Assembly: GCA_050184075.1 (NCBI GenBank)
Contig: JBFXAS010000004.1
Location: 250 to 64,249, forward strand
Direction of reading: 5' to 3'
Length of the DNA: 64,000 nt
Source of the DNA: Gemmatimonadales bacterium
GTDB lineage: Bacteria > Gemmatimonadota > Gemmatimonadetes > Gemmatimonadales > GWC2-71-9
The notes beneath the pieces are model-generated. The model ran no database searches. It saw only the letters and a program-made list of their open reading frames with translations, and was not told where the DNA came from. Positions 1,431 through 55,109 of the stretch are shown in pieces. Positions within the stretch are counted from its first letter, which is position 1. Every line of letters begins with the position of its first letter. The translations under genes and the position numbers were made by a program.

Positions 1431-1456
1431 TACGGAACAGTCGCAGGGCCAGTTTC
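1431..1456 (-). promoter_or_regulatory. Putative ECF-sigma promoter GAAAC-N17-CGTA
   Basis: Minus strand GAAAC tggccctgcgactgttc CGTA, about 55 nt upstream of the 1375 ATG. Confidence 0.6.
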
Positions 1457-1559
1457 GCCCTAAGACTACCCCCACCCCGGCCGATACTCCCAGGCAGAGT
1501 CGATAGCCCGTCGTCGTCGAGATCGAGGATCCCAGCGCCCAACCTCGGAGGCCAGAGGC

Positions 1560-1994
1560 ATGTCCCCCAAGCACCCGACGCTCGACATCCCGAACATCGG
1601 TCCGATGGACCACGCTTGGGATGCCCTGGGTGAATGGCAGATCGAGCTCGACGCCCCCTTCCACGAGGACCCCATCGCCGGCCGGCTCGAGGTCTCGAGC
1701 TGGATGGAGGCCACGCTGGAGCTCGAGCCCTGGGGAGCCGCGGCCGCCGGGCTGCCCGAAGAGGTCACCCTGGAGCGGGCCAGCCGGGTGCACATGACCG
1801 ACGCCGGCGGCGGCGCGCTCCAGTGGGTGTTCGTGGCGCCGGAGGATGGCTGGACGGTACAGGCCACCTTGTGGCCCGGGTCGCTCCACCTGTTCGTCCA
1901 GGACATCGACGAGCCCGACGAGCAGCTCTTCCACGCCGTCGCGACCCGCGATCGAGAATACTACCTCAGGAAATACCCGCTGGTTGCCAGCTGA
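1560..1994 (+). CDS. Hypothetical acidic protein
   Basis: AGAGG RBS, protein-like composition, fills the gap between neighbours. Confidence 0.7.
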   Translation: MSPKHPTLDIPNIGPMDHAWDALGEWQIELDAPFHEDPIAGRLEVSSWMEATLELEPWGAAAAGLPEEVTLERASRVHMTDAGGGALQWVFVAPEDGWTVQATLWPGSLHLFVQDIDEPDEQLFHAVATRDREYYLRKYPLVAS

Positions 1995-2006
1995 CCCCGA
2001 TCGGGG

Positions 2007-3002: not shown

Positions 3003-3029
3003 GGGGCCGGGGTCGCTCCGCGCGCGGCC

Positions 3030-4244
3030 CTACTCGTAGCGGAGGGCCTCGATCGTGTCGAGGTTGGCCGCGCGCCGCGCCGGCCAGAGCCCGAAGAAGA
3101 GCCCGACCAGCGCGCTGAACACGAAGGCCACCCCAACCGCCGTCGGCGAAATGAACGTGTTCCAGCCGAGGAAGTTGGACATCGCGTTGGCGCTCCCCGC
3201 GCCGAGCATCACGCCGAAGAGGCCGCCGACCAGACAGAGCACCACCGCCTCGACCAGGAACTGCCCCATGATCGTGCTCCGGGTGGCGCCCAGGGCCCGC
3301 CGGATCCCGATCTCGCGGGTGCGCTCGGTGACCGAGACCAGCATGATGTTCATGATCCCGATGCCGCCGACGACCAGCGAGACCGCCGCGATGCTGCCGA
3401 GCAGGTACTTGAAGATCTCGGTGGCCTGCTGCTGCGTGGCGAGGATCTCCTGCTGGTTGCGGATCTGGAAGTCGTTGTCCGCCCCGGGCAGGATCTTGTG
3501 CTCACGCCTCAGGATCCGCTCGATGTCGACCATGCCCTGCTCCAGGGTGACCCCCTCCTTCACCGCCACCGCGATCTGGCGGAGCCGGTCGGACCCCATC
3601 AGCCGGTATTGCGCCGTCTCCAGCGGCACCAGGATCTGCTCGTCGGGATTCTCCCACGACATCTGGCCGCCCTTGGCCTCGAGGATGCCGATGATCTCGA
3701 AGGGCTGGCCGCCGATCTGGACGGTCTGCTGGAGCAGCGCCGCCGGATTGACCTGGAGCAGGTCCGGCACCGCCGCGCCGAGCACCGCGAAGCGCTGCCG
3801 GCCGGCGCCGTCGCCGGCGGTGAACATCCGTCCATAGGCGAGGGTGTAATTCCGAACCCGGAGGTAGTTCGGCGTCGTGCCCAGGACCCGGATGTTGAGA
3901 TTCTGATTGACGTACTCGAACGTCATGTTGCGGCTGACCTCGGGCACCACGTCGGCGATCAGCCTGGCGTCTCGCCGGAGCGCGTCGGAATCGTCCACCG
4001 TGAGGCTCACCCGCACGTCGGAGGAGCGACCGCCGAAGAAGGACTGGCCCGGGTAGACGCTCAACACGTTGGCGCCCATCGCGGCGATCCGCTCTTCGAT
4101 CGCCCGCTGCGCGCCGGACCCCAGCGCGACCACCGCGATCACGGCGCCGACGCCGATGATGATGCCGAGCATGGTGAGCCCGGCCCGGAGCTTGTGGTCG
4201 CGGATGCTGGTCAGCGCGACCTTGAGCGTCTCGGTGGTGATCAT
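3030..4244 (-). CDS. ABC transporter permease, MacB/FtsX family
   Basis: LTMLGIIIGVGAVI, VGGIGIMNIMLVSVTERTREIGIRRALGA, C-terminal EALRYE. Confidence 0.93.
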   Translation of the reverse strand: MITTETLKVALTSIRDHKLRAGLTMLGIIIGVGAVIAVVALGSGAQRAIEERIAAMGANVLSVYPGQSFFGGRSSDVRVSLTVDDSDALRRDARLIADVVPEVSRNMTFEYVNQNLNIRVLGTTPNYLRVRNYTLAYGRMFTAGDGAGRQRFAVLGAAVPDLLQVNPAALLQQTVQIGGQPFEIIGILEAKGGQMSWENPDEQILVPLETAQYRLMGSDRLRQIAVAVKEGVTLEQGMVDIERILRREHKILPGADNDFQIRNQQEILATQQQATEIFKYLLGSIAAVSLVVGGIGIMNIMLVSVTERTREIGIRRALGATRSTIMGQFLVEAVVLCLVGGLFGVMLGAGSANAMSNFLGWNTFISPTAVGVAFVFSALVGLFFGLWPARRAANLDTIEALRYE

Positions 4245-5776
4245 CGCGATTGCCCGGCCCGCTGCGAGCCGGCCGCGCGGGTGTTCGAGCCGCTCTGGCT
4301 CTGCATGCCCGGCACCGCCCCACCGCCGGTCATCCGGCCGATCCGATCCCGGAACTCCTGCTGCGACTGCACCAGACTCGCGCTCGGAAGGATCAGCACC
4401 GAGTCCGACGCGGTGAGCCCGGAGATGACCTCGCTGTAGTCGAGGTCGGTGAGCCCGGTCCGGACGGGGACCGGAGTCGGCCGGCCGTCACGCAGCACGA
4501 AGACGATGTAGTTGCCGCCGAACTCGAAGCTGTTGCCGCCGCTGCGGGGCCGGCCGCCAGCGCGGCGCCCGCCCATGGACCGCTGCAGCTGCTGCATCAC
4601 CGCCTGCTCCTCGGCGCTGAGCTGGCCGCCGCTGAAGCGCTTGCGGAAGATCTCCCGCACCTGCGTCTCGGTGACGCCCTCGGGCAGCTGGATCGTCCGG
4701 CCGTCGGGGGTGGTCATCGTGTTGGCCGCCGGCTTCGTGGCCTCCCCGCCGGCCTTGGCCGAATCGCCGCCGGTCGACGCCGGGCGCCCGCCGCCGTTCT
4801 CCTGCTGGGCCGCGAGCATGTTCTGCAGATCCTCGTTGCTGATCCCGAGCACCTGCGCCGCGGAGCCCACGTCGCGCTGGGTCCGGAGCGCCGCGTTGGG
4901 GACGGCGAGCACGTTGTCGCGCTGGCCGATGTGGATCTCGACGTCGGCGTTCATGCCCGGCTTGAGGAGGCCGCGCCGGTTGTCGATCCGGATCAGGACC
5001 GGAAACTTGGTGACGTTCTGCTCGGTTTCCGCCTGCGGCTCGACCTTGAGCACGCTGCCCTCGAACGGCTGGTTCGGATAGGCATCCACCGTGACCGTGG
5101 CGTCGAGGTCCTCGCTGATCTTGCCGATGTCGGTCTCGTCCACCAGGGTCCGCACCTGGACCAGATTCAGGTCGGCCATGGTGAGCAGCACCGTGCCGCC
5201 GCCCACGTCGCGGGTGGGCGAGGAGATCACCTGCCCGCGCTCGGCGTTCTTGGCGATGATCGTGCCGGTGATCGGGGCGCGGACGTCGGTGTCCTCCATC
5301 TGGATCCGCGCGTTCTCGACCTCGACCTCCGCCCGCACCACCTCGGCCTTCGCGTTGGCGAGGGCGAGGATGGCGTTCTCGTGCTCTTCCTGGGTGATCG
5401 ACTGCGACTTGAAGAGCTCGTCGGCCCGGTTCTTCTGCGACTCGGCGTTGCCGAGTCGCGCCTTGGCTACCTCGAGATTGGCTTCAGCCTGATTCACGGT
5501 GTTGCGCGGGCTCCGCTGATCGACCCGCACGATCAGGGTGCCGCGTTGCACCAGCTGGCCGGTCTCCGCGCGCATCTCGAGGATCTCGCCGGAGGCCTTC
5601 GACTTGACCTCGACCACCGTGTCGGGCTGCACCGTTCCGGCCGCCCGCGCCGAGACCACGATGTTCCGGGTCTCGACCGCGACGGCCTGGTAGGGCACCG
5701 AGGGGGCCTCCTCCTTGGCGCACGCCGCCGCCAGCAGCAACAGCGCCGGGGCGCCGAGGGAAACCATCCGTGCCAT
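4241..5776 (-). CDS. Periplasmic adaptor (MacA/HlyD-type membrane fusion lipoprotein)
   Basis: Lipobox LAAAC; VEVKSKASGEI; VRAPITGTII; VDETDIGKI; LKPGMNADV; VRTGLTD. Confidence 0.9.
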   Translation of the reverse strand: MARMVSLGAPALLLLAAACAKEEAPSVPYQAVAVETRNIVVSARAAGTVQPDTVVEVKSKASGEILEMRAETGQLVQRGTLIVRVDQRSPRNTVNQAEANLEVAKARLGNAESQKNRADELFKSQSITQEEHENAILALANAKAEVVRAEVEVENARIQMEDTDVRAPITGTIIAKNAERGQVISSPTRDVGGGTVLLTMADLNLVQVRTLVDETDIGKISEDLDATVTVDAYPNQPFEGSVLKVEPQAETEQNVTKFPVLIRIDNRRGLLKPGMNADVEIHIGQRDNVLAVPNAALRTQRDVGSAAQVLGISNEDLQNMLAAQQENGGGRPASTGGDSAKAGGEATKPAANTMTTPDGRTIQLPEGVTETQVREIFRKRFSGGQLSAEEQAVMQQLQRSMGGRRAGGRPRSGGNSFEFGGNYIVFVLRDGRPTPVPVRTGLTDLDYSEVISGLTASDSVLILPSASLVQSQQEFRDRIGRMTGGGAVPGMQSQSGSNTRAAGSQRAGQSR

Positions 5777-5778
5777 CG

Positions 5779-6528
5779 TCACTTCTCCGTCATGAAGTCG
5801 CGCGCCACCTGACCATCGTGAAGATGGACCTGGCGATGCGCGTGTTCGGCAATGTCGTGTTCGTGGGTGATCAGCAGGATCGTGTGCCCTTCGGCGTGGA
5901 GCTGGTCGAAGAGCTTGAGGATCTCGATGCTGGTCTTGGAGTCCAGGTTGCCCGTGGGCTCGTCGGCGAGCAGGATGCTCGGGCTGTTGACCAGCGCGCG
6001 CGCGATGGCCACGCGCTGCCGTTGGCCGCCGGAGAGCTCGTTCGGCCGGTGATGCATCCGCTCGCCCAGCCCGACTCGACCGAGGGCCTCGATCGCGGCC
6101 GCGCGCCGCTCCTTGGAGCCAACGCCGGCATAGACCATCGGCAGCTCGACGTTCTGCAGGGCGGTCGCCCGGGGCAGCAGGTTGAAGGTCTGGAAGACGA
6201 ACCCGATCTCCTTGTTCCGGATCCGGGCCAGCTCGTCGTCCTCCAGATCGCTGACGCGGTAACCGTTCAGCCAGTATTCGCCTTCGCTGGGCGTGTCGAG
6301 ACAGCCGATCATGTTCATCAGGGTCGACTTGCCCGAGCCCGAGGGCCCCATGATCGCGACGTACTCGTTCTTCCGGATCGTCAGGTCGACCCCCTGAAGC
6401 GCGCGCACGGTCTCCGAGCCCATCTCATAGTCGCGCCGGAGGTTCCGCACCACGATGACCGCGTCACGGGGCACGTCCGGCGGCAGGAGCGCCATCCGCT
6501 CCGCGGTGGTTTCGATGCTCGCGCTCAT
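5779..6528 (-). CDS. ABC transporter ATP-binding protein (MacB/LolD-like)
   Basis: Walker A GPSGSGKS, signature LSGGQRQR, Walker [13 protein letters not shown]. Confidence 0.95.
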
Positions 6529-7832
6529 AGATCCCGTCCGATCAGTGCCTCGATTTGCGCCTTGGCCCGGAGATAGTCGAAGCGGGCCGTGACCAGGTCG
6601 ACCTCGGCCTGGGTCAGCGACTCCTGGGAAGTCAGCACGTCCACGATGGTCGCCACGCCGAGCCGGTAGCGCTCCTGCTGCACCCGGAGGTCCTCGGTGG
6701 CGGCGGCCAGGCTGGTCTGCGCGATCCCGATCCTGGTCTCGGCGGCGGCCAGCTCCGCGAGCCGGGTAGTCAGGTTGGCCTGCACCTCACGCTGGGTCTC
6801 GGACGCGGTTGCCTCGGCGCTTTGCGCGTTGGCGACTTGGTTGGCGATCGTCTGCTCCCGCTGGAAGCGGTTGAAGATGTCCCAGGAGAGCCGGAGCGCC
6901 ACGTTCCGCTGCTGGAGGAAATTGTAGTCGGTCTGCTGGCTGCCGTTGAGCGAGGCCGAGCCCGAGAGCGATACGGTCGGCCAATAGCCGGACCGCCCGA
7001 CCCCGACACTGGCCTGCGCCGCGCGGGCGGCCGCCTCGGCGGCCCGCACCTGCGGCGACCGGTTGAGCGCCTCGACCCGGAGCGCATCGCCCTCGACGTC
7101 CGTCACCACCCGGTAGAACGTGGAGTCGTCCTGCGCCGAGACCCGTCCATCGTAGCCGACCAGGCGGCCAAGGTTGGCCTCGGCCGTGGCGAGCTGGGTT
7201 TGGGCCTGGATCAGCTGCACCCTCGCGCTGCCCAGGGTGACCAGGGAGCGGAGCGAGTCGGAGCGGATCGCCGCGCCGGCTCGAAGCCGGGCGATCGAGA
7301 CGTTGAGCTGCTCCTCCGCGCGCCGGACGCTCGCCTCTCGCACCCGAACCAGCTGAGCGGCAGCGAGCACGTCGAAGAACTGGTTGGTGGTCTGGAGCTG
7401 CTGCTGGAAGCGCGCGTCGTCGAGGCCCTCCAGCGCCGACTCGTGCGACGCCCGCGCCGCGCGGGAGTCGGCGCTCCGGCGGAAGCCGTCGAAGAGCTCG
7501 ATGTTGGTGCTGACCGTGCCGTTGATCGAGGTGTTGGACGAATTCGAGCTCACCAGCTGCCCGGTGACCGGATCGACCCGCTGGCCCTCGGAGTAGAAGT
7601 TGCTGGCCGAGCTCGAGAACGAGAGGTTCGGGAGCCAGGCGCCCTTGGTGGAGCGGATCCGGGCGTCGGAGGTGCTCACCTGCCCGAGCGCCTGGACCAC
7701 GCGCGGCTGGACCCGTTGCGATCGCTCGATCGCCTCCTCGAGGGAGATGACCGGTCGGTCCTGAGCCGCCGCGGGACCGGCCAGCAGGACCAATCCGAGG
7801 ACGAGGGGCAACCGGGGGCTAACGTCGGCCAT
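6525..7832 (-). CDS. TolC family outer-membrane efflux protein
   Basis: Signal peptide, duplicated OEP halves (WLPNLS / YWPTVS), [13 protein letters not shown], operon context. Confidence 0.9.
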
Positions 7833-8211
7833 GTCGCTTTCCACGTGCCTGTCGCAGGCTGTCGTACTTCGCAACCAGCGCGTTGTAGGTCTCGATCTGT
7901 GCCGGCGTGAGGATCTCCCGGATGTCCCGTCGGGTGGCTTGCCGCTCGGCAGCGAACTGCTCGCGCACGGTGGCCCAGATCGAATCCATCACCGGCTGAT
8001 GCCGTTGGAGAATCGCCACCACCGCCTCCCGCTGGCTCGCGTCGAGCTTGAGGTCGACGGCCAGTCGCTCGGCGTAGGACTGGGGCGAATAGGGATCCCG
8101 GTGCCGACCCGTGGACCGGTCGGCCAGCATCGTCGCGGCTCCACCCGCCAGCCCGCCCAGGGCGAACGCCAGCGCGAGGAGCCCGGTGGCCATCATGCGG
8201 GAGCGGCTCAT
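7819..8211 (-). CDS. Spy/CpxP-like periplasmic helical protein
   Basis: N-terminal TM, then LKLDASQ and ILTPAQ (LTxxQ-type motifs). ATG overlaps the stop of the preceding gene. Confidence 0.65.
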   Translation of the reverse strand: MSRSRMMATGLLALAFALGGLAGGAATMLADRSTGRHRDPYSPQSYAERLAVDLKLDASQREAVVAILQRHQPVMDSIWATVREQFAAERQATRRDIREILTPAQIETYNALVAKYDSLRQARGKRHGRR

Positions 8212-8552
8212 CGTCCCTCCATCACGGCGAAGGTGATCGGGCCGATGTCGGAGCCCGTCGGGGCCATCAGGGCCGCCGCGGGGACCGTCGCGGCCGAGAC
8301 CGCCGGGCGCCGCCCCCAGTTGACGTAGAGGGCCGCGCCCAACAGGAAGGCCGCCGCCATCGCCGCGGCCAGCACGCTCGGTCGGGCCCAGGTCGCGAGC
8401 ACGTCCCACTGCGAGGCGGACTCGGGCAGCTCGCGCAGCAGACGACCCATCCGATCGAGAAAACCATCGTCGTCCGGTCCGGCCAGACGCTCTCGGAGCA
8501 GCGCGCCGAGCTCCTCGTCCGGACGCCCTGACGACCACGAATCGCGCTTCAT
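8208..8552 (-). CDS. Putative single-pass anti-sigma factor
   Basis: ATGA overlap with the ECF sigma stop; cytoplasmic N-terminus followed by one TM helix. Confidence 0.65.
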   Translation of the reverse strand: MKRDSWSSGRPDEELGALLRERLAGPDDDGFLDRMGRLLRELPESASQWDVLATWARPSVLAAAMAAAFLLGAALYVNWGRRPAVSAATVPAAALMAPTGSDIGPITFAVMEGR

Positions 8553-9091
8553 GACGTACCCTCCATCACTGACGACAGGACTCGACGCAACGCCCGCCGA
8601 GCGTGAAACACATAGGACCGCACCGTTCCCTCCGGCACCCCGAGCGACTGCGCGATCTCCGCATGCGACAGCCCTTCCACGTCGAACATCGTGACCGCGA
8701 TTCGCTGTCGCTCGGGCAAGGTCGCCAGCGCCCGGTCCAGATGATCCCGCAGCACCGCGCGCTCGGCCTCGTGGTCCGGCATTGGACCGCGGTGCGGCTC
8801 CGCCTCGGTGAGCGGCTCCGCCTTGCGAACCCGCCGCCGCCGCAGCTGGTCGAGCGACGCGTTGGCCACGATCCGCAGGAACCAGGGCCGAAACGACCGG
8901 GTCGGATCGTAGCGGTCGACGGCCTGCCAGGCAGCCAGGGCCGCATCCTGCACGACGTCTTCCGCCTCGTCCCAGTTGCCCAGGACCGAATACGCCACCC
9001 GACGCGCGGTCAGGGCATGCTCGAGCACCAGGCGGCCGAACGCCTCCCGGTCTCCTCGGCTCGCTGCTTCGGCCAGTCGCGACTGGGTCAC
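8549..9091 (-). CDS. ECF (sigma-70 group 4) RNA polymerase sigma factor, 'ECF1'
   Basis: GDREAFGRLV, AEDVVQDA, FRPWFLRIVAN (region 2); LPERQR...GLSHAEIAQSLGVPEGTVRS (region 4). Start GTG 9091 inferred from promoter position. Confidence 0.93.
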   Translation of the reverse strand: MTQSRLAEAASRGDREAFGRLVLEHALTARRVAYSVLGNWDEAEDVVQDAALAAWQAVDRYDPTRSFRPWFLRIVANASLDQLRRRRVRKAEPLTEAEPHRGPMPDHEAERAVLRDHLDRALATLPERQRIAVTMFDVEGLSHAEIAQSLGVPEGTVRSYVFHARRALRRVLSSVMEGTS

Positions 9092-9100
9092 GCCCGCTAC

Positions 9101-9126
9101 TACGCCGGGAAGCCCGGGTTCGTTGA
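9101..9126 (-). promoter_or_regulatory. Putative autoregulated ECF1 promoter TCAAC-N17-CGTA
   Basis: Minus strand TCAAC gaacccgggcttcccgg CGTA, 9 nt before GTG 9091. Confidence 0.7.
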
Positions 9127-9142
9127 GCATCTGAGGACTTCC

Positions 9143-10558
9143 TCAGGACCGGCCGTCGGGCGGGTCGGCGCGGCGCCGGACGACCTCCCCGCCCGCCACC
9201 AGCGCCAGCCAGAGGCTGAGCGTGCCGAACCCGATCGCCATGATGCCGGGGATCACGAAGAAGAGCAGGCCGAGCAACGCCAGCACGATCGCGAGCGGGC
9301 CAAAGATCGCCAGCCGGGCGCTCGCCGCCAGGGTCCTGAGCGCGAGGACCGAGCCGCCCCGGCGCTCCCTGAGCCCCCGGCGGTGCGGTGGCGAGGCCGG
9401 CGCCCGCGGAATCTCGAGCGCCGGCGGCACGACCCGGCGGAGCGGCGGCGGGACCCGGCGGGGCCGGCGCATCACCTCGGCGCTCCGGTCCATGTCCCGG
9501 CGGAACTGCGCCTCCATTCGATCGGCGAGCTCGACCGAGTCGGCCAGGACGTCGAGCTCGTAGTTCCCGACCAGGCTCGAGTGATTGAGATTGCTCGAGC
9601 CCACCCGGACCCAGCGATTGTCGGCGACCACGGTCTTGGCGTGGAGCATCGGGCCCTGCCACTCGAAGATCCGGACGCCCGCCGCGAGCAGGTCGCGATA
9701 GCCGAACCGGGTGAGATTGCGGACCACCGGCAGGTCGCTCGAGCCGGGCACCAGGAGCCGTACGTCGACGCCTTCGCGCGCGGCGTCGATCAGATAGCGG
9801 TACAGGCGACGGGGAGCCACCAGATAGGCGTCGGTGATCCAGACCCGCTCAGCCGCCGTGGCGAGGAGCAGCTCGCTCACCCGGTAGGCCCGTTCCCGCG
9901 CCGGCTCGCCCACCAGCACCCGCACCGCCGCGTTGCCCCGGGACTCCACCGCGCCGACGCTCTCGCCGTCCTCGAGCTCGCCGCCCGATCGCCTCCAGGT
10001 GACACCGAAGGCCTGGTCGATCGCGGTGGCCGCGGGACCGTCGATGCGAACGGCGGTGTCGCGCCAGGGCAATCGCCCTCGCTCGGGGTCACCGGCCCAC
10101 TCGTCGCCGAGACAGAGACCGCCGATCACCGCCCTCGTGCCGTCGGCCACCAGGATCTTCCGATGGTTTCGACTCAACAGCGAGGGAACGTCGAACAGCC
10201 TCGGCCCATTGAAGATCCGCACCGCCACCCCGGCCTCGCGCAGCGCCGACCAGTAGGAGCGTCTCGTCGAGAAGGAGCCGAGCCAGTCGGTCGAGACCCG
10301 GACCGAGACGCCCGCTCGCGCCTTCTCGGCCAGGAGCGCGGAGAATTCGCGGCCGGTGCGATCGTCGCGAATGATGTAATTGTCGAGGTGGACCCAGCTG
10401 GTGGCCGCCGCGATCAGCTCGCGCATGGCGGCGAACACGTCCGGACCGTCGAACAGCAGCTCGACCCGATTGCCCGGGATCGACCGGGCGCCCGCCGCCC
10501 GGTCGAGCGCGCGGACCAGGGCGTCCTGCTCGAGCCGACCGGGGCGGAGAGCGGTCAC
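9143..10558 (-). CDS. Cardiolipin synthase-like phospholipase D
   Basis: Two HKD motifs (NHRKILVAD, LHAKTVVAD), WRDT, GSSNL. GTG start overlaps the HD gene stop. Confidence 0.9.
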   Translation of the reverse strand: MTALRPGRLEQDALVRALDRAAGARSIPGNRVELLFDGPDVFAAMRELIAAATSWVHLDNYIIRDDRTGREFSALLAEKARAGVSVRVSTDWLGSFSTRRSYWSALREAGVAVRIFNGPRLFDVPSLLSRNHRKILVADGTRAVIGGLCLGDEWAGDPERGRLPWRDTAVRIDGPAATAIDQAFGVTWRRSGGELEDGESVGAVESRGNAAVRVLVGEPARERAYRVSELLLATAAERVWITDAYLVAPRRLYRYLIDAAREGVDVRLLVPGSSDLPVVRNLTRFGYRDLLAAGVRIFEWQGPMLHAKTVVADNRWVRVGSSNLNHSSLVGNYELDVLADSVELADRMEAQFRRDMDRSAEVMRRPRRVPPPLRRVVPPALEIPRAPASPPHRRGLRERRGGSVLALRTLAASARLAIFGPLAIVLALLGLLFFVIPGIMAIGFGTLSLWLALVAGGEVVRRRADPPDGRS

Positions 10559-11133: not shown

Positions 11134-11175
11134 GCGATGGTCCGTCCAGGGTGTGGCGGAAGGGCGCGCGCGGGC

Positions 11176-15458: not shown

Positions 15459-15473
15459 CCGGGGCGCCCGGCG

Positions 15474-20728: not shown

Positions 20729-20917
20729 GCGTTGTCGGGGTGTCGGAGGTGATCGTCTGTCCTTCGGCCCAAGGCAGCGTCGCCGCGGCGACATCGCGCC
20801 CGGTCCGCCGCCGGCAACTCTGTTCGCAACGCCTTGTCAATCAACGACGTTTGCGCCCGAGCCGCGGACGGTGGCGGCGCGCTGGCGAATCATATCGCAC
20901 CCTCTGCCGGAGGCCAA

Positions 20918-23224: not shown

Positions 23225-23683
23225 TCAGCCGCGCGGGGTGCAGTCCGTGCGACGGGTGTCGGCCACCTGCGCCACCTTCCATCCGTCGGCCAGCTTGGCC
23301 ATGAAGAACGCGTCGTAGCCGCAGTGACTGAGTCGGGTCCCGACCCAGAGCTCGTAGTAGACCCACACCTGCGCGATGTTCCCATCGACGTGCACGATCG
23401 GGTCGAAGATCTTCTCGTCCGGTCCCGGCCCGCTCCCCCGTCCGACGGAGCCGATCCACAGGCTCGGGTCGATTACCTGAAGCTTGGGCTCGCCGCTCTG
23501 CGTGTTGATCCCGAGCAGCCGGGCCTCCGGCGCCATCAGCGAGCGCATCAGCGCGGTGTCCCGGGTCCGCATCCCGTCGAACAGCCTGGTGATGGCCTGG
23601 ACGACGGCCTTCTCCTCGCTTTGCGCCCGGGCCGGCCCGGCCAGTGCCGCCGCCAGCGCCACCGTCGCGAACGCCATCCTCAT
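23225..23683 (-). CDS. Secreted NTF2/SnoaL-fold protein
   Basis: Signal peptide; LFDGMR..D...VHVDGNIAQVW..Y...HCG.D.F...GWK. Confidence 0.75.
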   Translation of the reverse strand: MRMAFATVALAAALAGPARAQSEEKAVVQAITRLFDGMRTRDTALMRSLMAPEARLLGINTQSGEPKLQVIDPSLWIGSVGRGSGPGPDEKIFDPIVHVDGNIAQVWVYYELWVGTRLSHCGYDAFFMAKLADGWKVAQVADTRRTDCTPRG

Positions 23684-23778
23684 CGTTGCACCTCATCGTG
23701 CGGGGTTGGAGCCAGATACCTTACCTGTGCCACACTCAACCGACGTCGGACCAACGAACCCGGTTTCGCGAGACATCC

Positions 23779-32604: not shown

Positions 32605-32630
32605 AAAACCGGGCGGGCCGGGGCTCCGTA
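32605..32630 (+). promoter_or_regulatory. Putative ECF promoter AAAAC-N17-CGTA upstream of S41 protease
   Basis: AAAAC cgggcgggccggggctc CGTA; overlaps a hairpin at 32620-32649. Confidence 0.45.
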
Positions 32631-32800
32631 AGATCCTTACAGGGGCCTCGCCACCCCAGGTCGAAACCCGGTAGCGTTTTAGGGGACCAAGCGTTTAGTT
32701 ATCAAACGGCTCCGCGGGGAAAACGGATGGCGCAATCCCTGCGGGGCCTCTGTCGGGGGCGTCGAGGCGCCCCCGTTTGCACCCTCTTGGAGTGAACGGA

Positions 32801-36020: not shown

Positions 36021-36024
<4 letters not shown>

Positions 36025-37891: not shown

Positions 37892-39202
37892 TCAGGGCTG
37901 GAGCTCGAGCTCCAGGATGTGAGTCGGCCCGAGGGTCGCTCCGGAGCGGAGCTTGCCCTCGTCGTCGTAGAGCGGCCAGTGGCTGTCGGCCACGTAGTAG
38001 AGGCGGTCGCCGACCAGGGTCCCGATGGTGGGCTCCGAAGCCACCGGCAGATGGCGATCGATCGTCTCCACGGATTCGACCGAGCCCTGGTCGGCGGCGA
38101 GTCGGATCCGGATCACCCGGGGCGGCCCGCCGCCGTTCTGGATTCCGATCAGGGATCCCCGCCACCAGGCCAGGCCGTCGATGCCGAGCGCGCTCGCCCC
38201 CGGTCCGGTCGGCAGGTGCCGCACCGCGCGGGTGCCGGCCTGGACAGCGAAGAGCCCGTGGCTGTAGTCCGCCACGAACAACGTCCTCCCGGTCTCGTCG
38301 AGGGCGGCTCCCTGGAGGGACCGGAACATCCGGTGCTCCAGCCAGGGCTCGATCTCGAGCCTGCCCCCCGAGAGCCTGGCCCGGTAAATGACCGGACTCT
38401 CGCTATCGGTGAGCAGCGCGTCGCCCTCGGCCGTGAGCACCAGGTCGCCCAGCCAGTGCGGGCGCCCGTCGTCGGGCACCGCGGCCCGACCGAGCCAGGC
38501 CCGCTTCGAGAGATCGTAGACCGCCACCCCGCTCCCGCCGGGGGCGCCGGACCGGTAGCGGCCGAACATCGGGAACATCTTGGTGCTGACCCAGAGCAAG
38601 CGCCGCGACCGGTCGACCCGGACGCCGAGCAGCGCGCCGAGCGGGGCGTCCGCCGGCGGGGTGATTTCCACGATGGCCCCCGTTCGATCGATCTTCGCGA
38701 TCGAGCCGTGCCGGACGCTGGTGACGAACCACTCGTCGGCCGACGGATCGACGTCGATCCCCTCGGCGAAGAAGTCCGGCGCCGGGATGGTGAAGGCGAT
38801 TCGGCTCCTGGCCAGCGGCTCGCCGTTAGGCGCCAGTCGGGCGATCGCCCGGGTGATCGCGGGGGCGCCGAGCACGGGCCCGAAGTCCCCGGCCGCCCGG
38901 ACGTCGCGCCAGAAGCCCAACGCGGCCAGTCGCTCCAGCCACTCGGCGGCGGCGGCGGTGTCCGCCACCCGGGCCGAAAGCCCTGCGGCCGCGTAGAGAT
39001 AGGCCGGCTGGGCGGGCCAGACGCTGGCCGCGCGGACCATGCCCTGGCGGGCCCGGGCGAAGTCGCCCGCCCGATAGGCCTCGGCTGCGTCCCGGTAGGC
39101 CTCGCGGGCCAGCGCCGCGAGCGAGTCGGGGGCCTGCGGCGCGGCGGGGACCGCCGCGCCGCAGGCCAGCAACAGCGCGGCGAGGATCCGCCTAGCGCTC
39201 AC
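37892..39202 (-). CDS. Secreted TPR + SMP-30/gluconolactonase-like beta-propeller protein
   Basis: Signal peptide, helical N-terminus, propeller blades (AEGIDVD, GDLVLT..G...LTDS, LQG, IDGL). Confidence 0.7.
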   Translation of the reverse strand: MSARRILAALLLACGAAVPAAPQAPDSLAALAREAYRDAAEAYRAGDFARARQGMVRAASVWPAQPAYLYAAAGLSARVADTAAAAEWLERLAALGFWRDVRAAGDFGPVLGAPAITRAIARLAPNGEPLARSRIAFTIPAPDFFAEGIDVDPSADEWFVTSVRHGSIAKIDRTGAIVEITPPADAPLGALLGVRVDRSRRLLWVSTKMFPMFGRYRSGAPGGSGVAVYDLSKRAWLGRAAVPDDGRPHWLGDLVLTAEGDALLTDSESPVIYRARLSGGRLEIEPWLEHRMFRSLQGAALDETGRTLFVADYSHGLFAVQAGTRAVRHLPTGPGASALGIDGLAWWRGSLIGIQNGGGPPRVIRIRLAADQGSVESVETIDRHLPVASEPTIGTLVGDRLYYVADSHWPLYDDEGKLRSGATLGPTHILELELQP

Positions 39203-40760
39203 GCCGGATTCTCGCGATCCGCGCGGGGACCCGGGACGGCGAGGCGCCGTACGCCAGCCAGACGTCGCCCCGGACGGGGTCGATCGCCATGTGGCGGATC
39301 AGCGCGCCCTGGCTGGGAAGCGGGTAGGTCTCGAAGCGACCGGTGGCCGGATCGTAGCGGAAGACCGCATCGGCGGCGCTGGTGCCGATCCAGACCGCCC
39401 CGGTGCCGGGCTCGACCCTCGCGATGTACGGCGTCGCGCCGGCGAGCGGAAGCGGGATCTCCTCGAATCGACCCGACGCGGGATCGAGCCGGACGAGCAG
39501 GTTCGCGGCGTAGGCCGGGATCCAGAGCCGGCCCTCGCGATCGACGTCGAATCGGCGCGGGCCGCTCCACGAGGTCGGCAGCGGGTAGGCGCGGCTCTCG
39601 CCGCTCGCGGGATCGTAGGCCACGAGGCGGTTACCCTGGAGCTCCGAGACCCAGACCCGACCGTCGGGCCCGATCCGCTGCTCGTAGGGAATCGGGCCTC
39701 CGGGCACCGTGCGCATCGTCGGGTGCGGCGCGAGCGGGAACACGTCGACCGCGCCGGTGGCCGGAGTGATCCGTCCGATCTGCTCGGGATCGCGGGTAAA
39801 GTGGCCGTTGTACCAGACGTGGCCGTCATCCGCCACGGCGATGCTGTGCGGGTAGAGGCCGATGTCGAAGAACGACCAGCTGTCATCGGCCGACCGATAA
39901 CGGCCGACCTTGCCCGGACGGCCGAGCAGCACCCACCAGTCGCCGGCCTGGTCGATCTCCACGGCGCGGGGATTGGCCTGGGGCACCGGAATCTCGATCC
40001 GCTCGAAGACGCCCGTGCGGGGATCGAGCCGCTCCATCACGTTGCTGAACATCCCGGTGACGACGACCCGCCCCTCCCGGTCGACCGCGAGATCGTGTGG
40101 GAGATCGCCGGCGGTCGGGAAGTCGAACTCGGTGATTACCGCGTTGCTCGCAAGCTCGGTCGGGTATCCGGCCTCAGGCCGATCAACCTTGGCCAGCGCC
40201 GTGCCCAGCCATTCGGCGGCCGGACCCTCGGGCCAGGTGGAGATCACCGGAAAAGAGGAGCGGGGTCCGGCGTAGCCGAGCATCCGCTGGATGTCGACGG
40301 CCCATTGAGTGGCAGCTCGCGGCGCGCCGTCCTTGAGCGCGCGCGAGTCGTCGAACTGGTGACATCCGGTGCAATCGAGAATGAAGCGACGGCGCACCTC
40401 GCCGTCCGGTAGCCTGGCGAGCCAGGCGGCGCTGCTGGCCCGTCGGCCGGGGGCGGTGGCGGGCGCCAGCGCCACGGCGAGCGCGCCCGCTGCCCGGTCG
40501 ATCTTCCGGACGTGGGCCGTGGCTCGTCCGTCGGCGGTCGTGGCGGTGAGAGTCAGGTGACCCGCGGCGAGGTCGGGAAAGCGGAAGCCACCGTCACCGC
40601 CCGTCACGGCGAGGTGAGTTTGGCCGCCCGAGGAGTCCCGGAGAACCACCAGCACCCCGCCAGCCGGGCGACCCGCCGGATCGCGGACCCGTCCGACGAT
40701 GGGAGAGAACGGAGACGAAGCGACCGCGAGCGCGACGAGCGCGGAAAGCGTCAGCAGCAT
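39192..40760 (-). CDS. Secreted protein: carboxypeptidase-regulatory-like domain + c-type heme domain + Vgb-lyase-like beta-propeller
   Basis: GRVRDPAGRP...DGGFRFPDL; CTGCH heme motif with downstream W....RM; repeated P(H/R/Y)-x-[LIV]-x-V-D..G.VW blades. Confidence 0.8.
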   Translation of the reverse strand: MLLTLSALVALAVASSPFSPIVGRVRDPAGRPAGGVLVVLRDSSGGQTHLAVTGGDGGFRFPDLAAGHLTLTATTADGRATAHVRKIDRAAGALAVALAPATAPGRRASSAAWLARLPDGEVRRRFILDCTGCHQFDDSRALKDGAPRAATQWAVDIQRMLGYAGPRSSFPVISTWPEGPAAEWLGTALAKVDRPEAGYPTELASNAVITEFDFPTAGDLPHDLAVDREGRVVVTGMFSNVMERLDPRTGVFERIEIPVPQANPRAVEIDQAGDWWVLLGRPGKVGRYRSADDSWSFFDIGLYPHSIAVADDGHVWYNGHFTRDPEQIGRITPATGAVDVFPLAPHPTMRTVPGGPIPYEQRIGPDGRVWVSELQGNRLVAYDPASGESRAYPLPTSWSGPRRFDVDREGRLWIPAYAANLLVRLDPASGRFEEIPLPLAGATPYIARVEPGTGAVWIGTSAADAVFRYDPATGRFETYPLPSQGALIRHMAIDPVRGDVWLAYGASPSRVPARIARIRRER

Positions 40761-40790: not shown

Positions 40791-40816
40791 TACGCGCCCG
40801 CGCAAATCGCTGTTTC
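40791..40816 (-). promoter_or_regulatory. Putative ECF promoter GAAAC-N17-CGTA upstream of heme-c propeller gene
   Basis: Minus strand GAAAC agcgatttgcgcgggcg CGTA, 30 nt before ATG 40760. Confidence 0.65.
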
Positions 40817-40840: not shown

Positions 40841-40850
40841 CCGAGCTCGG

Positions 40851-47425: not shown

Positions 47426-47428
47426 CGG

Positions 47429-48469: not shown

Positions 48470-48485
48470 TCGAGGCCTCGTGGGT

Positions 48486-51736: not shown

Positions 51737-52707
51737 GGCTTGGCGTCCAGCGCCCGGAGCGCCTGATTGGTCCGGGCCAGCGAAAGCAGCAGCGTCTCCA
51801 GCTCACGCTCGTACGCCGTCGAGTCCATCGAGGCCTTGCGCTGCCGCAGCTCGGCGATCGCGGTCTCCAACCGCTTCCGCTCCGCCAACAGCGGAGCGGC
51901 TCTGGGATCGTCCGCCAGCGCGCTGGCGCCGCCGCCGAAGCTCACCGCGCGGGCCAGCGCGCCGTCGGTCCCCTTACCGAGGTCGGCGCTCCCCGCGCCG
52001 TCGCCATCGTCGTCGAGGATCGCGTGCTCGGTCAAGAGTCGCCGCTCGGCCTCGTACTGCCGGGCCACCTCGGCCTTGGCGAACACAAAGGCCTCCGCCA
52101 CCGAGGTCCGGCCGTCTTTGTCCGTGTCCGCGCCACCGGCGAGGCCCTTGACGAAGTGATCGGCGAACGACGTGGCGTTCCGCTCGAAGCCCGTCTTGGT
52201 GGCAGCGACGATCACCCGGCGCTTGCCCGAGAGCGGCTTCACGAACTCCCCGCTCGCGCTCGCCGAATTCACCACGACCACCGTCTGGGTGGTGAAAGCC
52301 GAGAGCGCGCCCGCGAGGTCGCCGGCGGTCAGATCCGGGCCGGGCAGGCTCAAGCGCGCTTCGTCACCCTGCTGGCTCCCGTGACCGAGCAGGAAGATCA
52401 GCACCACGTCCTCGGGGCGGGCGCTGGTAGCGAGCTTCCCGATCTGCGAAAGGACCTCGTCGCGGGTGGCGCGTCCGGTGATCCGTCCCGGGTCCGCGGC
52501 CGGACGCTCGGCCAGATAGACCAGATCCGACTCGGGCACCCGCCAGGCGTTGGTCGCCTGCTCGATCAGCGCCCCGGCGTTGGCCGCGAAGCTCTTCGCG
52601 TATTGGGGCTCGCCGCTCAGGCCGCTCACCACCAGGACCTTGAGGCCCTGCGCCGGGAGCGGCGCGACGGCAGCCAGGCCGAGCGTTGCCAGCAGCGCGG
52701 CCCTCAC
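51733..52707 (-). CDS. Secreted caspase/legumain (clan CD)-fold protein
   Basis: VLIFLLGHGS strand-His-Gly motif; VVVVNSASASG at the DACxSG position; DTDKDGRTSVAE Ca-loop; C-terminal helical hairpin. Confidence 0.65.
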   Translation of the reverse strand: MRAALLATLGLAAVAPLPAQGLKVLVVSGLSGEPQYAKSFAANAGALIEQATNAWRVPESDLVYLAERPAADPGRITGRATRDEVLSQIGKLATSARPEDVVLIFLLGHGSQQGDEARLSLPGPDLTAGDLAGALSAFTTQTVVVVNSASASGEFVKPLSGKRRVIVAATKTGFERNATSFADHFVKGLAGGADTDKDGRTSVAEAFVFAKAEVARQYEAERRLLTEHAILDDDGDGAGSADLGKGTDGALARAVSFGGGASALADDPRAAPLLAERKRLETAIAELRQRKASMDSTAYERELETLLLSLARTNQALRALDAKP

Positions 52708-54986
52708 GCTAGCCCCCGCACCCGACGCAGCGTCCACTCGCTCGCCAGCAGCAGCACCAAGAGGAAAAAGACGATCGGCATGTCCCAGAGGTCCTTCACC
52801 TCCGTCACGGTCACGCCGCTCTCGGTGTAGCGGGCATCGTCGGGCAGCCGGTCGACGTCCGCCGCGGTGTAGAAGCGCCCGCCGGTCTCGTCGGCCAGCC
52901 GGCGCAGCAGTGGCGAGCGCATCTCGGAGTTGAGGAAGTCGAGACCCCGATCGGCCACGCCCGTGTAGATCGGCTCGGCCCGGAGCGTGTCTCGCCCCAC
53001 CAGGGCGTCGACCTCGAGCCGGTAGATCCCGTCGGCGCGGGGCACGAAGCTGCCCTCGTAGGTGCCGTCCCGGCCCAGGGTCCAGTCGAGCGGGATGGTG
53101 TCGACCTGGCCGAGCGGCGAGGTGACCCGGACGATCGCCGAGCCGTCGTTCACCCGCAGGAAGTTGGAGTCGCCGATCTCGGCGCGGACCGTGACCCGCT
53201 GTCCCGGCGCCGGGTGGTCGGGGCTCACCGCCGTCTCGAGTCGATCCGGCACGTCCTCGAGCAACCAGCGCAGCATCTGCCGCCAGAAGGTCTCGTGAGA
53301 CTGGTCTTCCAGCGGAATGTCGGCGTGCATCTGCCAGAGCCAGGTGTCCTGCACCAGGAGCGCGAGCGCCTTGCCCCGGCCGTATCGCTGCACCGCGAGT
53401 CCCGGACCCGAGGCCCCTTCCGGCTCCCTGGCCGTGAGCAGCGCCGTGGCCCCGGCCTTGAGACCGGTCCAGTGATTGACCGAGGTGAGCTCGGGCAGGC
53501 TGTCCCAGCGAGCACCATTGTCGCGCTCTTCCTGGGTCAGGAGCAGCGCCGCATTCGCGGCCCCGGCCGGCGTGAGCGCCATCGCAACCGGCGTCGCGGG
53601 CTCCGCCGAGTCGGCCCGACGGTTGGCGAAGGTGACCGGCAGCACTTCGGCGACGGGCGAGGACTCGTACGCGCCCTCTCCGTAGGAGTCGCGCCCGCCG
53701 AGGGCGAGGAGTCCGCCGCCCCGCTCGCCCACGAAGTCGGCGATCATCCGGAGCTGGTCGGCGGTGAAAGCCGAGGCCTCGATGCTGCCCAGGACGAGGC
53801 CGCGGTAGCGGTAGAGCTCGCTGCGGGTGGTCGGAAAGCCGCCCAGCAGCTCCAGACTGTCGTCCACGCCCACCCGGAGGAACTTCGCCTGGGCGCTCCG
53901 CTGGAGCCCGACCAGCTGGAGATTGCTGTCGGTAGCCGCAGCTCGTCGCATGAAGGCGAATTCGGGCCGCAGCGTGCCCTCGACGTAGAGGATCTTCTCC
54001 CGCCGGTCGCGGACCCGCACCACGGCGTGGGCCACGTTGTCCTGACTCACCAGCTCGCCGGGAACCGGCTTCACGCTCACCTGGAGCTCGCGCGGGCCCG
54101 CTTCGAGTGGCGGAATCCGCACCGGAACGCTGACCAACTCCCCGGACTGCGGCAGGGTGACGTCCTGCTGTGCCACGATCCGACCACCGTCCTCGACTAC
54201 GAGCGTGACGGTCTCGCCGCCGAGGCCGCGGGCCCGGATCGACACACTGCCGAGCAGCACGGCGCCCCGGAGCGTGGAACGGGGCAGTTCGACCCGCTCG
54301 ATCGCCAGATCGCGCTCATAGCGCTCCGAGCCGATCCCCACGGTGTAGACCGGGATCTTGGCGGCCTCGAGCGAGAGGATCGGCTCCCCGAGCGAGTTGC
54401 CGACGTTGTCGGCCCCGTCGGTGAGCACCACGATCCCGGCGAGCGGAGCGCCACCCGCGTCGCGCCGCACCAGATCGAGCGCGGAGGCCAGATCGGTGCG
54501 GGAGCCGGTGCCGGCCAGCGAGGTCCCACGACCGAGGCGCTCCGCGCTCTCCGAAAAGCGGTAGGTCCGCACCACGAATCGCTCGGCCAGACGCTTGGTG
54601 ATCCGGGCCGTGGAATCGCCCGCCAGGGCCAGCATCGCTTCGAGGCGGGTGGCGCCCTCGCCAGCATCGGCGATGTGCATGCTGCGGGAGTCGTCGAGCA
54701 GCACGGCGATGGCGTTTTGCTGCGGCACCGAAGTCGAGAGCACCAGCGCGGGTCGCAGCAGCGCCAGCCCCACGAGGGTCAACGCCAACAGGCGAAGGCC
54801 GACCAGTACCACCCGGTCGACCGGCTTGGCCCGGGTCCGCCGATAAGCCAACAGGGTGAGCACCAACGCGACGCCGACGAGCGGTGCGACCCAGTATCCG
54901 ACACCCGTCCAAGTCAAAACGCCCCGCTCGAACACTCGGGCGGGGTACTTGAACAGGAACTCGAACAGGGCTTCGAAAACGCTCAC
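52704..54986 (-). CDS. Membrane-anchored VWA + class I glutamine-amidotransferase-like domain protein
   Basis: GAGGGA RBS before GTG; TMs; MIDAS DDSRSM, LTDG; KILYVEG; FVGERGGGLLALGG; YGRGK...W.W...FWRQMLRWL; C-terminal LWD...EW.LRR..GL. Confidence 0.85.
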   Translation of the reverse strand: MSVFEALFEFLFKYPARVFERGVLTWTGVGYWVAPLVGVALVLTLLAYRRTRAKPVDRVVLVGLRLLALTLVGLALLRPALVLSTSVPQQNAIAVLLDDSRSMHIADAGEGATRLEAMLALAGDSTARITKRLAERFVVRTYRFSESAERLGRGTSLAGTGSRTDLASALDLVRRDAGGAPLAGIVVLTDGADNVGNSLGEPILSLEAAKIPVYTVGIGSERYERDLAIERVELPRSTLRGAVLLGSVSIRARGLGGETVTLVVEDGGRIVAQQDVTLPQSGELVSVPVRIPPLEAGPRELQVSVKPVPGELVSQDNVAHAVVRVRDRREKILYVEGTLRPEFAFMRRAAATDSNLQLVGLQRSAQAKFLRVGVDDSLELLGGFPTTRSELYRYRGLVLGSIEASAFTADQLRMIADFVGERGGGLLALGGRDSYGEGAYESSPVAEVLPVTFANRRADSAEPATPVAMALTPAGAANAALLLTQEERDNGARWDSLPELTSVNHWTGLKAGATALLTAREPEGASGPGLAVQRYGRGKALALLVQDTWLWQMHADIPLEDQSHETFWRQMLRWLLEDVPDRLETAVSPDHPAPGQRVTVRAEIGDSNFLRVNDGSAIVRVTSPLGQVDTIPLDWTLGRDGTYEGSFVPRADGIYRLEVDALVGRDTLRAEPIYTGVADRGLDFLNSEMRSPLLRRLADETGGRFYTAADVDRLPDDARYTESGVTVTEVKDLWDMPIVFFLLVLLLASEWTLRRVRGLA

Positions 54987-55083
54987 GGCATCCCTCGCGG
55001 CGTCTCGCTCACTCACGCCCGAGGGAAGGCGCCGAACTGACGCCGGGGAACGGGAGGGCTTGCCGGCTATGACTATCTATATC

Positions 55084-55109
55084 TACGCCGGCCCCAATCG
55101 TAAAGTTGC
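55084..55109 (-). promoter_or_regulatory. Putative ECF promoter GCAAC-N17-CGTA upstream of the MoxR-VWA operon
   Basis: Minus strand GCAAC tttacgattggggccgg CGTAG; shares ccggCGTAG with the ECF1 promoter. Confidence 0.7.

Follow-up and report, generated by a model that had tools for sequence, protein, structure and literature searches.

A 64 kb stretch of a Gemmatimonadales genome (G000:C4:250-64249, hereafter the window) contains five copies of the bipartite motif AAC-N17-CGTA. A first-pass annotation had ascribed these sites to one envelope quality-control regulon, controlled by an extracytoplasmic function (ECF) sigma factor encoded in the same window and here called ECF1. The observation is real and wider than first thought, and the mechanism is the ordinary one of ECF promoters, split over two regulons. 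Two motif classes were distinguished, class E (yyCAAC-N17-(G)CGTA) and class A (TGAAAC-N17-CGTA), and it is likely that they are owned by different sigma factors. For the full explanation, in which ECF1 controls an efflux regulon from class E promoters and a SigW-like ECF sigma factor encoded outside the window, on contig C39, controls a regulon of class A promoters, we estimate a probability of about 0.68.

Gemmatimonadota are abundant in soil and freshwater, and to our knowledge there is almost no experimental genetics for this phylum. ECF regulons with AAC/CGT promoters are textbook knowledge; literature searches found no paper on ECF promoters of Gemmatimonadota and no promoter prediction for ECF1 at the level of ECF groups. 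The assembly comprises 5.36 Mb in 379 contigs, has 70.5% GC and is ~86% complete. Because a standard listing of open reading frames (ORFs) is uninformative at such GC content, we built a simple codon-usage gene caller of our own, which is not a standard tool and yielded 4554 genes (~89% coding). A jackhmmer search identified 53 sigma-70-family genes. Orthologues of ECF1 were collected in two samples, 30 order-level loci and a partly overlapping second set of 55 Gemmatimonadales loci. Motif statistics, conservation and domain content are direct observations, and all that is said below about transcription, start sites and sigma binding is inferred from them.

On both strands of the window there are exactly five matches to AAC-N17-CGTA. 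All five are non-coding, and each faces the next gene. Their core coordinates, preceding bases and distances from CGTA to the start codon, in nucleotides (nt), are as follows:
1431-1454, minus strand: GAAAC, 55 nt before ATG 1375
9101-9124, minus strand: TCAAC, 9 nt before GTG 9091
32607-32630, plus strand: AAAAC, 170 nt before ATG 32801
40791-40814, minus strand: GAAAC, 30 nt before ATG 40760
55084-55107, minus strand: GCAAC, 97 nt before GTG 54986

Thus the positions, orientations and flanking bases had been listed correctly, and these sites are the sole matches in the window. One hundred dinucleotide-preserving shuffles of the window gave 0.97 matches on average, and five matches were reached in one of them.

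The genome-wide numbers of intergenic matches to AAC-Nx-CGTA with x from 13 to 21 are 19, 15, 17, 32, 69, 14, 15, 16 and 9; when only non-coding matches pointing at a gene within 300 nt are counted, the numbers are 6, 8, 8, 21, 63, 9, 8, 5 and 3. Since there are 63 gene-facing non-coding sites at N17 and 3-21 at the other spacings, the N17 spacing is specific, with N16 as a minor second. This bears out the expectation of the first-pass annotation that the motif would be enriched in intergenic DNA, and supports AAC...CGTA as an ECF-type promoter. In the relative G013, a hand tally from listed coordinates gave 8, 13, 20, 9 and 6 of 56 matches for N15 to N19; for the pattern count across the 31 relatives the reversed-pattern control was too GC-dependent to serve, and only G013 was tallied. 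With an AAC -35 box and a CGT -10 box 16-17 nt apart, located upstream of and facing a gene, the AAC-N17-CGTA sites are very likely functional ECF promoters.

The bases around the core separate the sites. In the logo of the 63 N17 sites G occupies position -2 in 52 and A occupies position -1 in 46, the dominant element being GAAAC-N17-CGTA; A at -2 is rare (2/63). In an unbiased k-mer tally no other pentamer comes near GAAAC in frequency 17 nt upstream of CGTA, and CGTA (43) and CGTC (27) are the only tetramers enriched 17 nt downstream of GAAAC. Genome-wide, GAAAC-N17-CGTA has 44 gene-facing non-coding copies and 2 coding ones, and GAAAC-N17-CGTC has 27 and 20, respectively. For GAAAC-N16-CGTA the non-coding and coding counts are 10 and 10, and for GAAAC-N18-CGTA 5 and 8; the same genome-wide comparison gave no enrichment of GAAAC-N16-CGTC and GAAAC-N18-CGTC, and GAAAC-N17-CGTT is barely enriched (4 sense, 1 antisense).

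Class A comprises TGAAAC-N17-CGTA together with its CGTC and some N16 variants. It has the TGAAAC -35 box and the CGTA -10 box of SigW-type promoters. With ~80 promoters it occurs about once every 60 kb, and ~70 sites of the form TGAAAC-N17-CGT(A/C) lie elsewhere in the genome than in the window; at this density the window is no unusual cluster. In class E the C at -1 is invariant and G usually precedes CGTA. The flanks differ as well, class E having G before CGTA and G after AAC, and class A mixed bases and C. Exact TCAAC-N17-CGTA sites facing genes occur only twice in the genome, upstream of ECF1 and upstream of an HlyD-family gene on contig C54, and beside these two there are seven more gene-facing CAAC-N17-CGTA sites. 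Only the sites at 1431 and 40791 in the window are canonical class A; the others read AAAAC (32607), GCAAC (55084) and, at ECF1, TCAAC. The idea of one bipartite motif therefore holds for the common N17 spacing and CGTA box, whereas the flanks show two classes.

The class E promoter in the window heads the following unit:
9101..9126, minus strand: ECF1-class promoter TCAAC-N17-(G)CGTA, found by the pattern scan and by orthologue conservation
8549..9091, minus strand: ECF1, an ECF sigma factor of 180 amino acids (aa) from GTG 9091, with Pfam domains Sigma70_r2 and Sigma70_r4_2
8208..8552, minus strand: single-pass membrane protein of 114 aa, putative anti-sigma factor of ECF1, by position only
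7819-8211, minus strand: LTXXQ/Metal_resist-like periplasmic protein, by a Pfam match below the gathering cut-off
6525-7844, minus strand: OEP/TolC-like protein (Pfam)
5779-6528, minus strand: ABC ATPase (Pfam)
4241-5776, minus strand: HlyD membrane-fusion protein (Pfam)
3030-4244, minus strand: MacB_PCD and FtsX permease (Pfam)

CAAC-N17-CGTA was found at the matching position in 29 of the 30 order-level ECF1 loci, the remaining one having CGTT, and yyCAAC-N17-(G)CGTA in all 55 Gemmatimonadales loci, in nearly all of them 8 nt before the aligned start codon. The CAAC and CGTA blocks are kept, whereas the spacers vary freely. The 80 nt upstream of 22 ECF1 homologues from outside Gemmatimonadota contain no CAAC-N17-CGTA. 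Since the frame upstream of the GTG codon contains a stop or lacks an ATG in most orthologues, the promoter really precedes the gene. It is located directly upstream of ECF1 and conserved together with it, and ECF1 is very probably autoregulated from this site, as had been proposed. Because the -10 box is only 8-9 nt from the start codon, the predicted ECF1 mRNA has no leader or almost none. The aligned start codon in the 55 loci is GTG in 47, GTA in 6 and another codon in 2.

ECF1 matches Sigma70_r2 with 68.8 bits and Sigma70_r4_2 with 72.3 bits, and its score against the NCBIfam sigma70-ECF superfamily model (110.7 bits, cut-off 42.9) places it among the ECF (group 4) sigma factors. The best NCBIfam model is SigM PRK09643 (125.6 bits, below the cut-off of 190), and the best match in PDB is SigE (9m9d), SigW ranking lower. 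Each of the 31 genomes of the order contains exactly one orthologue; the nearest ECF1 in the databases is 98% identical, and the closest records are metagenome-assembled genomes of Gemmatimonadales and Gemmatimonadota.

The genes of the ECF1 operon abut or overlap. In its translation the 114-aa protein starts with a soluble part, after which comes one hydrophobic helix, and it has no match in Pfam or NCBIfam. The next protein scores 25 bits against Metal_resist (PF13801, gathering cut-off 29.2), and its positional orthologue in locus L131, from a 57%-identical relative, scores 30.9 bits. The order ECF sigma factor, 112-aa ORF, Metal_resist, OEP, ABC is kept in L131, with the 112-aa ORF at the position corresponding to that of the 114-aa protein. 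The permease, ATPase, HlyD adaptor and OEP channel are all above the Pfam cut-offs and together constitute a MacAB-TolC-type exporter. Thus ECF1 heads an operon with a Spy/LTXXQ-like protein and such an exporter, in agreement with the first-pass annotation. The HlyD-family gene on contig C54 is preceded by TCAAC-N17-CGTA, and CAAC-N17-CGTA is present in 7/7 orthologues from the genus, CAAC and CGTA being the only invariant columns upstream of these genes.

ECF1 thus looks like a narrow, positively autoregulated regulator of efflux and the envelope. RNA polymerase with ECF1 would start ~6-8 nt downstream of CGTA, near the GTG codon; one mRNA would cover ECF1, the candidate anti-sigma factor, the LTXXQ/Spy-like protein and the exporter, and the second HlyD-family efflux gene would be driven by the same promoter class. 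In this genome and its 98%-identical twin only, an in-frame ATG is present at 9130 together with a strong GAGGAAG Shine-Dalgarno box (window 9130-9143, minus strand), overlapping the stop codon of the upstream PLD/cardiolipin-synthase-like gene; if it were used, the promoter would lie inside an N-terminal extension of ECF1. Many distant ECF1 loci (L099, L103-L105, L109, L110, L114-L117, L120-L127, L130) have a second box, CAACGAC, 9 nt upstream of the -35 box, and further upstream an element CGTATCTTT, an arrangement suggestive of ECF-type promoters in tandem or of a -35 box that has been duplicated. The other ECF gene of the window, ECF2 (29008-29547), has no AAC..CGT motif within 300 nt upstream.

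The candidate owner of class A is the ECF sigma factor of contig C39. Its stop codon is followed 15 nt on by GAAAC-N17-CGTA and then by a gene starting MKPVTPHL...HIETCDRC. This sigma factor is single-copy in 30 of the 31 genomes, with identity of 80-98% in the genus and 64-72% across families, and is the best conserved among the ECF sigma factors examined. GAAAC-N17-CGTA occurs once per locus in 30/30 loci, always between the sigma stop codon and the next gene, and in an alignment of this junction from 20 sequences of three families only the TGAAAC and CGTA columns are invariant. The two top NCBIfam matches are the SigW models NF007223 and TIGR02948, and the best match in PDB is SigW of B. 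subtilis (5wuq), with a very similar region-4 helix. The adjacent downstream gene encodes the motif HxxxCxxC (HIETCDRC) and is a ZAS-like anti-sigma candidate, with a weak NCBIfam antisigma match (E 0.0009, 19.3 bits, cut-off 100). The class A promoter before this gene would provide negative feedback through the anti-sigma factor. From these comparisons the C39 ECF is SigW-like rather than a SigW equivalog, and it is the owner of class A on a modest balance of probability.

Around the SigW-like ECF (contig C39, 10.6-25.3 kb), a stretch of 14 kb contains three canonical GAAAC-N17-CGTA sites, whose downstream genes encode a 385-aa protein without a family, the anti-sigma candidate and a Lumazine_bd_2 protein.

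Several observations weigh against assigning class A to the C39 ECF and class E to ECF1. The C39 ECF is below the curated SigW cut-offs (151.9 bits at a cut-off of 209, and 139.8 at 243.1), its anti-sigma candidate has no Pfam zf-HC2 match at E<=1e-4, and no conserved class A promoter occurs upstream of the C39 sigma gene itself, which is atypical for the owner of a regulon; another sigma factor could be the one that reads the junction promoter. As the genome is fragmented and ~86% complete, an autoregulated class A sigma factor could lie in the missing DNA. Because spacing and CGTA -10 box are common to both classes, ECF1 could still read some class A promoters; at the 55084 site of this genome, C at -1 and GCGTA are both of the ECF1 type. 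The start codon is other than GTG in 8/55 ECF1 loci, and the leaderless start is thus not secure everywhere. Finally, every assignment to coding or non-coding DNA depends on our own gene caller, and the relatives are kin, so that conservation counts overstate independence.

That ECF1 reads all AAC-N17-CGTA sites, TCAAC and GAAAC alike, as originally proposed, is quite improbable. The common spacing and -10 box are what such a regulon would have, ECF1 is a core gene (31/31 genomes), and B. subtilis ECF sigma factors with similar motifs overlap in promoter use (PMC5758882). The site before the Bat operon (described below) is GCAAC...GGCGTA here, that is of the ECF1 class, and in five relatives a yCAAC-N17-GCGTA site lies 140-224 nt upstream of this operon. 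However, the ECF1 promoter keeps the C at -1 in 55/55 loci and is never GAAAC in any lineage, whereas TGAAAC is kept in 30/30 loci at the C39 junction, before the anti-sigma gene of another sigma factor, and in 19/19 loci at the 1431 site. The flanks of the two classes differ, only two exact gene-facing TCAAC-N17-CGTA sites exist in the genome, and in family f3 one class A promoter has shifted to GAATC while the ECF1 promoter stays CAAC. Co-control by ECF1 is consequently supported for the operon that it heads, and possibly in this genome for the Bat operon as well; it is not supported for the sites at 1431 and 40791, which are class A. Still less credible is the explanation that a 70% GC genome produces such matches by chance or through its composition and that they are no promoters at all: although the core motif is short, with 7 specified bases, one shuffle in 100 reached five matches, and the copy before the M42 gene and a coding-region match at 58712 look accidental, chance would hardly account for the specific spacing, the strong non-coding bias genome-wide, and the invariant -35 and -10 blocks with variable spacers across up to 55 loci.

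Alternatively, class A may be real and owned by another of the ~50 ECF sigma factors, perhaps an unassembled one, or by several overlapping ones, the C39 junction then being a case of cross-regulation; a different sigma factor might own the CGTC subclass in particular. We consider this unlikely. It would agree with the missing class A motif upstream of the C39 sigma gene, with the incompleteness of the genome, and with the CGTC promoters shared by several B. subtilis ECF sigma factors (PMC5758882). However, when the 500 nt preceding each of the 53 sigma genes were scanned with a position weight matrix, the best score was 11.8, the training minimum being 14.3, so that no other sigma gene has a class A match in the training range, and the C39 ECF is the best conserved and the most SigW-like of those tested. 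The only sigma gene located behind a class A site (GAAAC-N17-CGTC) is that on contig C7 (G000:C7:1991-2503). Its orthologues (E<=1e-30) are present in 13/18 genomes of the genus, 1/6 of family f2 and 0/6 of family f3, and it was rejected because it is missing from many relatives, namely five in the genus and all six in f3, that still keep class A promoters. The core ECF of contig C2 was rejected too, its own conserved promoter being a related but different motif, yAAACCC-N16/17-(C/T)(G/A)TCCAA; as a related promoter, in the form yAAACCC-N16/17-CGTCCAA, it counts in favour of the alternative.

The C2 ECF (G000:C2:61961-64022; L200-L202, L208-L237) is followed by a zf-HC2 anti-sigma gene and a DUF4097 'toastrack' gene. 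Its promoter lies ~10 nt before the GTG start codon, and promoters abutting start codons, with predicted leaderless mRNAs, seem to be common for ECF genes in this order.

Returning to the preferred assignment of class A to the C39 ECF, the SigW regulon of B. subtilis is an 'antibiosis' regulon, to which class A bears a resemblance. The spacing of sigW promoters is 16 nt, compared with 17 nt between AAC and CGTA in class A. The regulon flavour is similar, with membrane proteases, detoxifying enzymes, transporters and proteins resembling penicillin-binding proteins, and SigW provides both the best family match and the best structure match of the C39 ECF. TGAAAC with CGTA is the sigW promoter signature, the same -35 and -10 boxes as in class A, together with a CGTC subclass, CGTC promoters being shared among ECF sigma factors (PMC5758882). 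Unlike B. subtilis, the present member of the Gemmatimonadota is diderm, the class A promoter precedes the anti-sigma gene rather than the sigma gene, and the anti-sigma candidate appears ZAS-like (HxxxCxxC) rather than RsiW-like.

The second comparison is with RpoE-RseA of E. coli, whose theme, like that of class A, is envelope stress, including proteases. The sigmaE motif is GGAACTT/TCAAA, unlike class A. The sigmaE-dependent promoter rseA P3 stands directly before the anti-sigma gene and gives negative feedback (PMC8595263), a precedent for the arrangement at the C39 junction. E. coli also has a sigmaE-dependent promoter before rpoE, whereas none is conserved before the C39 sigma gene. ECF1 in turn resembles typical autoregulated operons of ECF, anti-sigma and efflux genes in being the first gene, in the small membrane protein encoded next, in the AAC/CGT promoter and in the narrow regulon; it differs from them in the promoter located 8-9 nt from GTG and in the cargo of an LTXXQ protein and a MacAB-TolC-type exporter.

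The first genes behind the 42 GAAAC-N17-CGTA sites outside the window were scanned against Pfam. They include regulators and signalling proteins (two Ser/Thr kinases, three PadR regulators, and LytTR, AraC and Fis-type proteins); transport proteins (three fused MacB/FtsX permeases, an ABC ATPase, an OEP protein, a TonB receptor); proteases and cell wall proteins (three CAAX proteases, M23, S13 and a weakly matching S41 peptidase, two proteins of the beta-lactamase fold); likely detoxifying proteins (erythromycin esterase, a glyoxalase/bleomycin-resistance protein, a DinB protein); repeat and propeller proteins (two FG-GAP/LVIVD proteins, propeller and PD40-amidohydrolase proteins, a Sel1 protein); and DUF445, an epimerase, an alpha/beta hydrolase and Lumazine_bd_2. 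Eight of the 42 have no family match in Pfam. The theme of envelope quality control, noted for the window genes in the first-pass annotation, fits this content; this theme of envelope and antibiotic defence is, however, one of the genome-wide class A and not of ECF1. PadR regulators (three) and fused double MacB_PCD/FtsX permeases (three) recur behind class A promoters, and the expanded PadR-MacB-like pairs of the phylum may be controlled as a group by a stress sigma factor.

Separating the classes avoids the assignment of ~80 promoters to the wrong sigma factor. The consensus, which is conserved in three families and has ~44 exact copies in non-coding DNA compared with 2 in coding DNA, constitutes a testable map of a stress regulon, and gives a regulatory context to uncharacterised units, namely to the pair of the 89-aa membrane protein and YggX, to the heme-c propeller, to the PadR/MacB pairs and to the Bat/MoxR-VWA machine. 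The two classes also offer orthogonal pairs of ECF sigma factors and promoters as possible parts for synthetic biology.

A further unit behind an AAC-N17-CGTA site of the window is the Bat/MoxR-VWA operon:
55084..55109, minus strand: promoter GCAAC-N17-(G)CGTA of the operon, which runs from 54986 down to 40851 (~14 kb)

As in Bacteroides aerotolerance (Bat) operons, genes for MoxR AAA_3, DUF58, BatA with VWA, and TPR proteins form one co-directional unit. Here the operon is extended by GATase1_like, C13-like, Peptidase_MA_2 (in the TPR protein), DUF4159 and DUF4175 proteins and stands under a conserved ECF-type promoter. All 12 other loci of the genus with upstream DNA have GAAAC-N17-CGTC at the aligned position, reading GGAAACTTTAC...GGGCGTC; it was found in 0/2 loci of family f2. 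In these relatives it is a conserved class A (CGTC) promoter, and the ancestral Bat promoter was probably of this class. In the present genome either sigma factor may own it, because the two changed bases are those distinguishing the ECF1 class, and apart from the ECF1 promoter it is the only site in the window that is still compatible with ECF1 control. The shift would have required two substitutions in this lineage, GAAAC to GCAAC and CGTC to CGTA.

A more detailed scenario, in which the SigW-like C39 ECF has negative feedback only and ~80 promoters across the order, and the Bat promoter has moved towards the ECF1 regulon, is tentative and on the whole doubtful. The C39 sigma gene would then be transcribed from a housekeeping promoter, and the sole conserved self-targeted promoter would drive the anti-sigma gene. 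If true, the Bat promoter would be a natural example of a hand-over between ECF sigma factors.

A conserved box TATAGATAGGTA is located directly 3' of the Bat -10 box (window 55073-55081, minus strand; L062-L077) in all orthologues from the genus. It could be an operator, a signal in the initially transcribed region, or an overlapping sigma-70 -10 box using a conserved TTTAC as its -35 box. ECF1-type yCAAC-N17-GCGTA sites in the orientation of the operon were observed upstream of the first Bat gene in L063, L064, L065 and L068 (~204-224 nt) and in L069 (140 nt); in four of these five relatives the site appears to overlap an opposite-strand ORF for a small membrane protein. These upstream sites may link ECF1 to the Bat operon in the five genomes.

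The remaining class A and variant sites of the window, with their genes, are the following:
1431..1456, minus strand: canonical class A promoter (T/C)GAAAC-N17-CGTA, before the genes of an 89-aa membrane protein and a YggX-like protein
1106-1375, minus strand: 89-aa membrane protein, from ATG 1375
847-1089, minus strand: YggX-like Fe(2+)-trafficking protein, downstream of the 89-aa gene
40791..40816, minus strand: canonical class A promoter GAAAC-N17-CGTA, 30 nt before ATG 40760
39192-40760, minus strand: secreted CxxCH beta-propeller protein (Pfam Vgb_lyase/NHL/CarboxypepD_reg)
23742..23767, minus strand: class A site GAAAC-N17-CGTC, ~60 nt before the Lumazine_bd_2 gene 23225-23683
32605..32630, plus strand: variant site AAAAC-N17-CGTA, 9 nt after the stop codon of a HEAT-repeat gene and 170 nt before the S41 gene
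32801-34381, plus strand: S41/PDZ protease gene, downstream of the 32605 site
32672..32800, plus strand: proximal promoter-like element TAGCGT...TAGTTAT of the S41 gene and structured 5' leader, from an alignment of 18 regions of the genus
20828..20851, minus strand: one-mismatch copy CAAAC-N17-CGTT, before the M42 peptidase gene (ATG 20727)

Class A would thus drive the units of the small membrane protein with YggX, of the heme-c propeller and of the lumazine-binding-like protein in the window, and probably also the distal S41 promoter and, ancestrally, the Bat/MoxR-VWA promoter. Conservation upstream of orthologues was observed for four of the five promoters of the window. The copy before the M42 gene, listed originally as a one-mismatch site, is present in the sequence, but it is probably due to chance: the upstream region is not alignable and lacks the motif in all five sampled orthologues of the genus (0/5). 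The site at 23742-23767 was missing from the original list because it ends in CGTC.

The 1431 promoter reads TGAAAC-N17-CGTA in 19/19 loci of the genus. In family f2 GAAAC-N17-CGTA is exact in two loci and has an N16 variant in two more, and in family f3 GAATC-N16/17-CGTA is found at the same place in 6/6 loci. A conserved box TAGTATCGGCAG lies ~20 nt upstream of the -35 box of the small membrane protein gene in the genus (window ~1470-1490; L251-L267) and may be an element of the divergent gene 1560-1994, for which Pfam gives no family.

The 40791 promoter is conserved as GAAAC-N16/17-CGTA in 4/4 syntenic orthologue loci (G010, two loci of G003, and G014). The propeller protein has a signal peptide and a CTGCH motif, and the genes 37892-39202 and 36021-37850, the latter encoding an M61 peptidase with a PDZ domain (Pfam), are probably in the same unit. 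The paralogue of the Lumazine_bd_2 gene on contig C39 (L172) carries GAAAC-N17-CGTA.

An Rfam scan of the window at the gathering threshold gave no matches. At the S41 gene, AAC-N17/18-CGTA is found at the matching place in 6/18 loci of the genus, and GGAAC-N16-CGTA 40-54 nt before the start codon in 4/6 loci of family f2; the 32605 site is a probable weak distal ECF-type promoter, at best a second promoter of the gene. All 18 orthologues of the genus share a sigma-70-like element, TTGGCG/TAGCG...TAGTTAT, distinct from the ECF motif. They also share two hairpins, a conserved CTGTCAGGGTGGCTTGAACCCTGCAGG-like one and, after it, a GC hairpin with a run of T residues immediately upstream of the Shine-Dalgarno box, and this region looks like a cis-regulatory leader or attenuator.

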